In this document: positions 11,017 to 12,251 of the stretch, in pieces | How positions within the stretch are numbered: position 1 is the stretch's first letter | Layout: each line of letters opens with the position of its first letter | Assembly: GCF_003334385.1 (NCBI RefSeq) | Contig: NZ_QOWN01000014.1 | Length of the DNA: 64,000 bases | Reading direction: 5' to 3' (one strand) | DNA from: Escherichia coli | GTDB taxonomy: Bacteria > Pseudomonadota > Gammaproteobacteria > Enterobacterales > Enterobacteriaceae | Position numbers and translations under genes: made by a program | Notes under the pieces: model-generated | What the model was told of the DNA's origin: nothing | Seen by the model: only the letters and a program-made list of their open reading frames with translations | Database searches by the model: none

Positions 11017-11775
11017 ATGAGCCTGACCCTCACGCTCACCGGCACCGGCGGCGCACAGGGCGTTCCGGCATGGGGCTGCGAGTGTGCGGCCTGCGCCAGA
11101 GCGCGGCGCTCGCCGCAGTATCGCCGCCAACCGTGCAGCGGCGTAGTGAAGTTTAACGACGCAATCACCCTGATCGACGCCGGGCTGCACGATCTCGCCG
11201 ATCGCTGGTCGCCCGGATCGTTCCAGCAGTTTTTGCTGACGCATTATCATATGGATCACGTCCAGGGGCTGTTTCCGCTGCGCTGGGGCGTTGGCGATCC
11301 GATCCCGGTTTACGGCCCGCCGGATGAACAGGGCTGCGACGATCTGTTTAAACATCCGGGCCTGCTTGATTTCAGCCACACGGTGGAACCGTTTGTGGTG
11401 TTTGATTTGCAGGGGTTACAGGTCACGCCCCTGCCGCTCAACCACTCAAAACTGACCTTCGGTTATCTGCTGGAAACGGCACACAGCCGGGTGGCGTGGC
11501 TGTCTGACACCGCAGGCTTACCGGAAAAAACGCTGAAATTTTTACGCAATAATCAGCCGCAGGTAATGGTGATGGATTGCAGTCACCCGCCGCGCGCGGA
11601 TGCACCGCGTAATCACTGTGATTTAAATACCGTGCTTGCGCTGAATCAGGTTATCCGCTCGCCACGGGTGATTCTGACCCATATCAGCCACCAGTTTGAT
11701 GCGTGGCTGATGGAAAACGCACTACCGTCAGGGTTTGAGGTGGGGTTTGATGGGATGGAGATTGGGGTGGCGTGA
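11017..11775 (+). CDS. phnP: Phosphoribosyl 1,2-cyclic phosphate phosphodiesterase PhnP (metallo-beta-lactamase fold)
   Basis: 252-aa ORF with HxHxDH motif ([11 protein letters not shown]). Confidence 0.92.
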
Positions 11776-11794
11776 TGAGAGGGAATGTGCGCGC

Positions 11795-11902
11795 TGGCCC
11801 CCTCACCCTAACCCTCTCTCCAGAGGGGCGAGGGGACCGATTGTGCTCGATATTGAATATTGCGCTCGTTTTCTCCCTCTCCCCATTGGGGTGAGGGGCG
11901 AT
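11795..11902. repeat. Two GC-rich imperfect palindromes, not REP-type, in the convergent phnP/yjdP spacer
   Basis: CCCCCTCACCCTAACCCTCTCTCCAGAGGGGCGAGGGGACC (about 11798-11839) and TTCTCCCTCTCCCCATTGGGGTGAGGGGCGA (about 11869-11900); arms CCCTC…/…GAGGG are self-complementary. Confidence 0.6.
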
Positions 11903-11921
11903 GCCTGCTCCATACCCAACC

Positions 11922-12251
11922 TCATCGCCCATACTCATCTTCCATTCTCCGCTCTTCATCCTCCAGTTGCCGACGCTCCTGATCAAGCTGGCGCTGGCGA
12001 TCGTCCAGCTGCCTGCGGCGATCTTCAAACTGGCGGCGGCGGTCGTCATATTGTCTGCGCCGATCGTCGCTCACTTCACGCTGCCAGCCGTCGTCGCGCG
12101 AATCTTCATAGTCTCGCCCACGGTCAGGGTTATAAGCGTCATTAATCGCCTGCTGAATATTGCCAATGGTGTCGTCGATAATATCGGCCTGGGCCGGAAC
12201 GGTGGACAGCGTGAGCAGGGTGAATAAAAGAAATAGCGGAAAGCGTTTCAT
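11922..12251 (-). CDS. yjdP: YjdP, small secreted highly charged low-complexity protein
   Basis: 109-aa ORF MKRFPLFLLFTLLTLSTVPAQA… followed by DDRRRQYDDRRRQFEDRRRQLDDRQRQLDQERRQLEDEERRMEDEYGR. Confidence 0.8.
   Translation of the reverse strand: MKRFPLFLLFTLLTLSTVPAQADIIDDTIGNIQQAINDAYNPDRGRDYEDSRDDGWQREVSDDRRRQYDDRRRQFEDRRRQLDDRQRQLDQERRQLEDEERRMEDEYGR

Follow-up and report, generated by a model that had tools for sequence, protein, structure and literature searches.

A head-to-head BoxC pair in the phnP-yjdP spacer of Escherichia coli

Two GC-rich palindromes in the spacer between the convergent genes phnP and yjdP are, with near certainty, a head-to-head pair of BoxC repeats. BoxC is not a new family; it has long been catalogued in E. 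coli, without a proven function, and the locus of the pair is already listed in two published tables. The pair is very probably a known BoxC copy with no dedicated function, an unstable structured repeat.

The analysis covered a 64-kb window of Escherichia coli DNA. The flanking genes were placed using the open reading frame list and the annotations of the orthologous locus in MG1655 and other RefSeq genomes.

11017-11775, plus strand: phnP coding sequence, stop codon TGA at 11773-11775; last gene of the phn operon.
11922-12251, minus strand: yjdP coding sequence, stop codon at 11922-11924; DDRRRQL repeat protein, convergent with phnP.

The spacer between them is 146 bp in length (11776-11921). 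By BLAST, the window is 99.87% identical to MG1655 over its first 30 kb and 99.05% identical over the remainder. Judged by this comparison of sequences, it is from a strain other than MG1655. The spacer itself differs from that of MG1655 at one base, T at 11819 (C in MG1655), and is otherwise identical. RefSeq MG1655 has no annotated feature in it.

An earlier note had described two imperfect CCCTC/GAGGG-type palindromes with two arms each at 11795-11902, and both palindromes do lie within that span. The pattern CCCTCNCCC-N(0-30)-GGGNGAGGG has two matches in the 64-kb window, at 11800-11834 (palindrome 1) and 11875-11897 (palindrome 2). It has none in 100 dinucleotide-preserving shuffles of the window, and an origin of the palindromes by chance was rejected on this count (0/100). 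A repeat search found a 24-nt direct repeat common to both palindromes (11812-11835 and 11875-11898, 83%), with inverted arms. Two details of the description needed revision. Palindrome 1 is not a simple two-arm structure but a three-block unit, CCCTCACCC / CCCTCTCTC / GGGCGAGGG, and by profile alignment the full repeat units reach beyond the span, to approximately 11787-11918.

The palindromes were rejected as members of the REP family, as the earlier note had held. The REP consensus GCCKGATGCGRCG is found 18 times in the window and is absent from 11776-11921. BoxC resembles REP and BIME elements in consisting of short, GC-rich, imperfect intergenic palindromes that often lie in spacers of convergent genes and often alternate in orientation, with copy number and presence varying by strain. 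The two differ in that their consensus sequences are unrelated and that BoxC has three blocks rather than two arms.

Profiles were built from 22 units with 25-nt flanks taken from the other 17 K-12 loci, 14 copies for type A and 8 for type B. Palindrome 1 was assigned to type A with the following features.

11787-11857, minus strand: BoxC type A, with a TTA second loop and conserved flanks (5' ...GCAC-N-CGGTC, 3' GCCAGCGCGCAC); nhmmer profile.
11799-11834, minus strand: three-block core CCCTCGCCCCTCTGGAGAGAGGGTTAGGGTGAGGGG, orthologue of TMECO #22 and HPGQ 51; coordinate mapping and alignment to NC_000913.3.
11826-11834, minus strand: C block of the core.
11812-11820, minus strand: first G block of the core.
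11800-11808, minus strand: second G block of the core.

The type-A profile, made from 14 other MG1655 copies, matches 11857-11787 on the minus strand with E=3.4e-18 and 60.7 bits, conserved flanks included. The core at 11799-11834 maps to NC_000913.3 4,314,285-4,314,320. These coordinates are exactly those of TMECO #22, and the sequence is also the same save for base 11819. TMECO #22 is listed as type A with one mismatch (Holder et al. 2015, Table 1, PMC4666352). HPGQ 51 is listed in class HPG1, between yjdP and phnP (Kaplan et al. 2016, table, PMC5100583). Comparison with catalogued E. coli repeat families, which the earlier note had proposed as a check, returned the locus itself.

Palindrome 2 was assigned to type B and lies on the opposite strand.

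11853-11918, plus strand: BoxC type B, T-rich in its 5' flank and missing 12 nt internally; nhmmer profile.
11875-11897, plus strand: two-block hairpin core CCCTCTCCC CATTG GGGTGAGGG; DNA hairpin of -8.7 kcal/mol, z -2.4.
11835-11874: head-to-head spacer of 40 nt, to which each unit contributes its 5' flank (GACCGATTGTGCTCG... and ...GCGCTCGTTTTCT).

The type-B profile (8 MG1655 copies) matches 11853-11918 on the plus strand with E=1.1e-6, and the match extends over the T-rich 5' flank that marks this type. The alignment has a single 12-nt gap that corresponds to one missing G block and one missing loop. Palindrome 2 is, on this alignment, a truncated type-B unit that is predicted to form a hairpin only. 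It has two blocks and lacks one G block, and is therefore in neither the TMECO nor the HPGQ catalogue.

A minus-strand type A and a plus-strand truncated type B are thus paired on opposite strands, as in the BoxC family. Strain eco-241 has this composite too, at an unrelated locus, with a similar spacer and a type B that is intact. Head-to-head orientation is also found at lldD-trmL in MG1655. In facing head to head, the window pair agrees with TMECO 17+18 and not with the other four K-12 pairs, which are tail to tail. No BoxC copy besides the pair was detected in the 64-kb window with the type-A and type-B profiles.

BoxC was first described beside envM (fabI), and one of the K-12 copies adjoins fabI. 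It is known as a 56-bp E. coli repeat in a survey of stem-loop families. The PIT ("potential intrastrand triplex") element was reportedly published by Hoyne and Maher in 2000. TMECO is the motif formerly named BoxC, which Maher's group found again and called PIT (Holder et al. 2015, PMC4666352). HPG1 and HPG2 are G-quadruplex-hairpin motifs (Kaplan et al. 2016, PMC5100583). The window pair shares with BoxC/PIT/TMECO/HPG copies the block sequences, the TTA loop of type A, the conserved flanks, the intergenic site and the pairing of A and B on opposite strands. It differs from them in a G-to-A change in the first G block of type A, with which the strict triplex and G-quadruplex patterns fail, and in a type-B partner without one G block. 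Despite failing the strict pattern, the window units are degenerate copies of the family and not outsiders. The other K-12 copies do align with both of them, and the homology takes in the flanks.

The family is multi-copy. K-12 has 23 units at 18 loci, all of which sit between annotated genes; seven of the 18 lie between convergent, nine between tandem and two between divergent genes. A blastn search with 11786-11910 (125 nt) as query gave 79,670 places in 5,426 complete E. coli genomes, with partial matches that typically span 11799-11855. The median genome has 16 places and K-12 strains 18. The suggestion of an intergenic repeat family distinct from REP is borne out by these counts. Places per genome vary from 1 to 29, with 4 in Nissle 1917 and 3 in NC101 versus 15-26 in K-12, O157 and many others. 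This wide strain range agrees with a published contrast in repeat copy number between strains 55989 and IHE3034.

The single base that distinguishes the spacer from that of MG1655 lies within the type-A core.

11819, plus strand: C to T relative to MG1655; the G-rich strand has A for G at this position of the first G block.

T at 11819 changes GGGAGAGGG to GAGAGAGGG in the first G block. The strict TMECO pattern CCCTCNCCC-N3-6-GGGNGAGGG-N3-GGGNGAGGG, as defined by Holder et al. 2015 (PMC4666352), matches the MG1655 orthologue and has no match in the window allele. A regular expression for four tracts of at least three G, 1-7 nt apart, matches the MG1655 allele GGGGAGAGGGTTAGGGTGAGGGGG and not the window allele. 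This one base accounts for the failure of both patterns in the window; it leaves the predicted DNA hairpin energy unchanged. The 125-nt segment was not found at 100% identity in any of the 5,426 complete E. coli genomes by blastn. An exact 42-mer with T at 11819 is present in three genomes, and the one that was located carries it in the pstA-pstB BoxC copy, another locus. The variant may be a recurrent mutation at a base adjoining the hairpin loop, or it may come from gene conversion between copies.

The spacer has at least four alleles among the 5,426 E. coli genomes, and the three shorter ones were counted with junction-specific queries. The full-pair form of the window and K-12 is 146 bp; at least 80% of the segment is present in 3,288 genomes. 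An O157:H7-type allele has a 76-bp spacer (353 genomes). An L001-type allele has a 42-bp spacer that keeps one 12-nt block (129 genomes). The shortest allele has a 27-bp spacer with neither palindrome and is found in approximately 1,010 genomes, including the type strain ATCC 11775. The 76-bp allele lacks 70 bp relative to the full form, between two short repeats.

11825-11831, plus strand: GGGGCGA, left copy of the 7-nt direct repeat bounding the 70-bp deletion.
11895-11901, plus strand: GGGGCGA, right copy of the same repeat.

The deletion of O157:H7-type strains is bounded by these two GGGGCGA repeats. The four alleles are consistent with published work on the instability of BoxC/TMECO loci, where rearrangement of the intergenic DNA greatly exceeds that at control sites (Holder et al. 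2015, PMC4666352). The BoxC pair can be viewed as structure-prone, self-similar intergenic DNA. Its C and G blocks, which have a 12-nt period, could misalign in replication or recombination and give rise to the shortened alleles.

The 27-bp allele (L002 971-1002; L044 151-183) has a weak match, E ~0.03, to the third G block and 3' flank of type B. Because even this allele weakly matches the type-B tail, no sampled allele is a clean empty site. The match runs over the last codons of phnP, its stop codon and the 27-bp spacer; at its end, phnP may overlap the relic of an old repeat. The phnP 3' end reads ATTGA in the sampled B2-type alleles and probably also in the E. coli representative genome. 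Strain 2023CK-01509, which has the 42-bp allele, carries yjdP (L001 1019-1348) as an annotated pseudogene interrupted by a stop.

Folding was predicted with ViennaRNA, which allows Watson-Crick and wobble pairs only. The earlier note had proposed folding as a check on the palindromes. Folded as RNA, the whole spacer beats shuffled sequences on both strands (z = -3.3 and -3.2). Individual DNA hairpins gain only modestly or marginally over composition-matched shuffles (z -0.6 to -3.0). In general, the blocks may fold into hairpins in single-stranded DNA or RNA, and a triplex or G-quadruplex would also be possible in intact copies. Only ordinary hairpins are predicted in the window, because both units are degenerate. 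A triplex is formed by a consensus oligonucleotide in vitro, and an in vivo footprint was without triplex (Holder et al. 2015, PMC4666352). In earlier functional work, as summarized by Holder et al. 2015 (PMC4666352), the elements blocked DNA polymerase in vitro and had no effect in vivo.

The reading best supported is that the pair has no dedicated cellular function at phnP-yjdP, an absence that we infer. In its favor, the spacer has neither a terminator pattern nor a REP consensus, and published tests for promoter and terminator activity and for a triplex footprint in vivo were negative. An Rfam covariance search at a permissive E-value returned eukaryotic models only, at chance level (E >=1.7). 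Some observations stand against it. The full form is well kept (at least 97.6% identity in all full-length copies among the matches listed, and 3,288 genomes), which may reflect constraint rather than recent common ancestry. A role at 3' ends would predict convergent neighbors, and these flank seven of the 18 K-12 loci. The marginal gain of individual DNA hairpins over shuffles also counts against the reading as a structured repeat.

Such a role, here as bidirectional terminator or 3'-end stabilizer for the convergent phn operon and yjdP transcripts, would follow what has been proposed for REPs between convergent genes, and it is unlikely. On both strands the hairpins would halt RNA polymerase or hold off 3' exonucleases. 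The convergent loci and the good folding of the spacer RNA on both strands speak for it. As RNA, the hairpins would belong to the 3' untranslated part of each transcript (phn operon and yjdP) and may incidentally slow 3' exonucleases, without the T run of an intrinsic terminator. A 2026 preprint describes REPs as context-dependent 3'UTR regulators, and a terminator role was raised for HPG motifs by Kaplan et al. 2016 (PMC5100583). The stems resemble an intrinsic terminator in being GC-rich hairpins downstream of a stop codon. Unlike one, they are followed by no T run on either strand of the spacer, and a scan of the spacer for promoter and terminator patterns found no site on either strand. 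No promoter or terminator activity of PIT elements was found by Maher and co-workers, in the summary given by Holder et al. 2015 (PMC4666352). Finally, the approximately 1,010 genomes with the 27-bp spacer do without both palindromes. The bidirectional terminator suggested in the earlier note is not supported by these results.

It is quite unlikely that the A-spacer-B composite is a MITE-like non-autonomous element that inserted into an originally short phnP-yjdP spacer. Three observations are consistent with insertion: the head-to-head composite recurs in another strain, at an unrelated site and with a comparable 40-nt spacer; genomes differ widely in copy number (1-29 places, with only 3-4 in Nissle 1917 and NC101); and 1,010 genomes have the short allele. 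That allele, however, keeps its weak type-B tail match over the phnP stop codon (E ~0.03), and neither a target-site duplication nor a clean empty site was seen. Deletions between internal short repeats would explain the intermediate alleles. No transposase, including a dedicated RAYT, is known for BoxC. Only 31 of the 79,670 places are on plasmids, and Holder et al. 2015 (PMC4666352) found BoxC linked to neither transposons nor phages nor plasmids. It is very doubtful that the composite is the mobile unit of an uncharacterized non-autonomous element or a strain-variable tuner of phn operon and yjdP expression.

It is most improbable that the pair is a specific binding site for a protein, such as a nucleoid or regulatory protein recognizing GGGNGAGGG blocks: the blocks are strongly conserved across copies, but common descent of the copies and the need to pair explain this equally well, no binder is reported in the BoxC/TMECO/HPGQ literature examined, and the motif scans of Kaplan et al. 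2016 (PMC5100583) gave no convincing transcription-factor motif and a low-probability MatP match only, so that the binding site proposed in the earlier note finds no evidence.

With the pair read as a BoxC copy without dedicated function, phnP-yjdP provides a compact natural example of repeat instability, with four allele classes and breakpoints in repeated blocks. It would suit tests of whether hairpin-, triplex- or G-quadruplex-prone repeats drive deletions and whether convergent 3' ends are affected by them. Naming BoxC copies removes false leads and has little importance beyond correct annotation. Because the spacer is unannotated in RefSeq MG1655, scans will keep flagging such copies as unexplained palindromes.

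Two 40-codon open reading frames cross the BoxC pair, at 11772-11894 on the plus strand and 11803-11925 on the minus strand (e.g., ...GPLTLTLSPEGRGD...). Almost certainly they are by-products of the repeat, and they could give rise to false "hypothetical protein" calls.

The window also contains tandem arrays of REP-containing units. An array at 1-320 has a 100-bp period, 3.2 copies and 97% matches and is, by position, the yjdM-yjdN REP325 array of the 2026 preprint. A second array, at 29689-29951 between gltP and yjcO, has a 113-bp period and 2.3 copies; its region is approximately 340 bp shorter than in MG1655, or roughly three fewer units.
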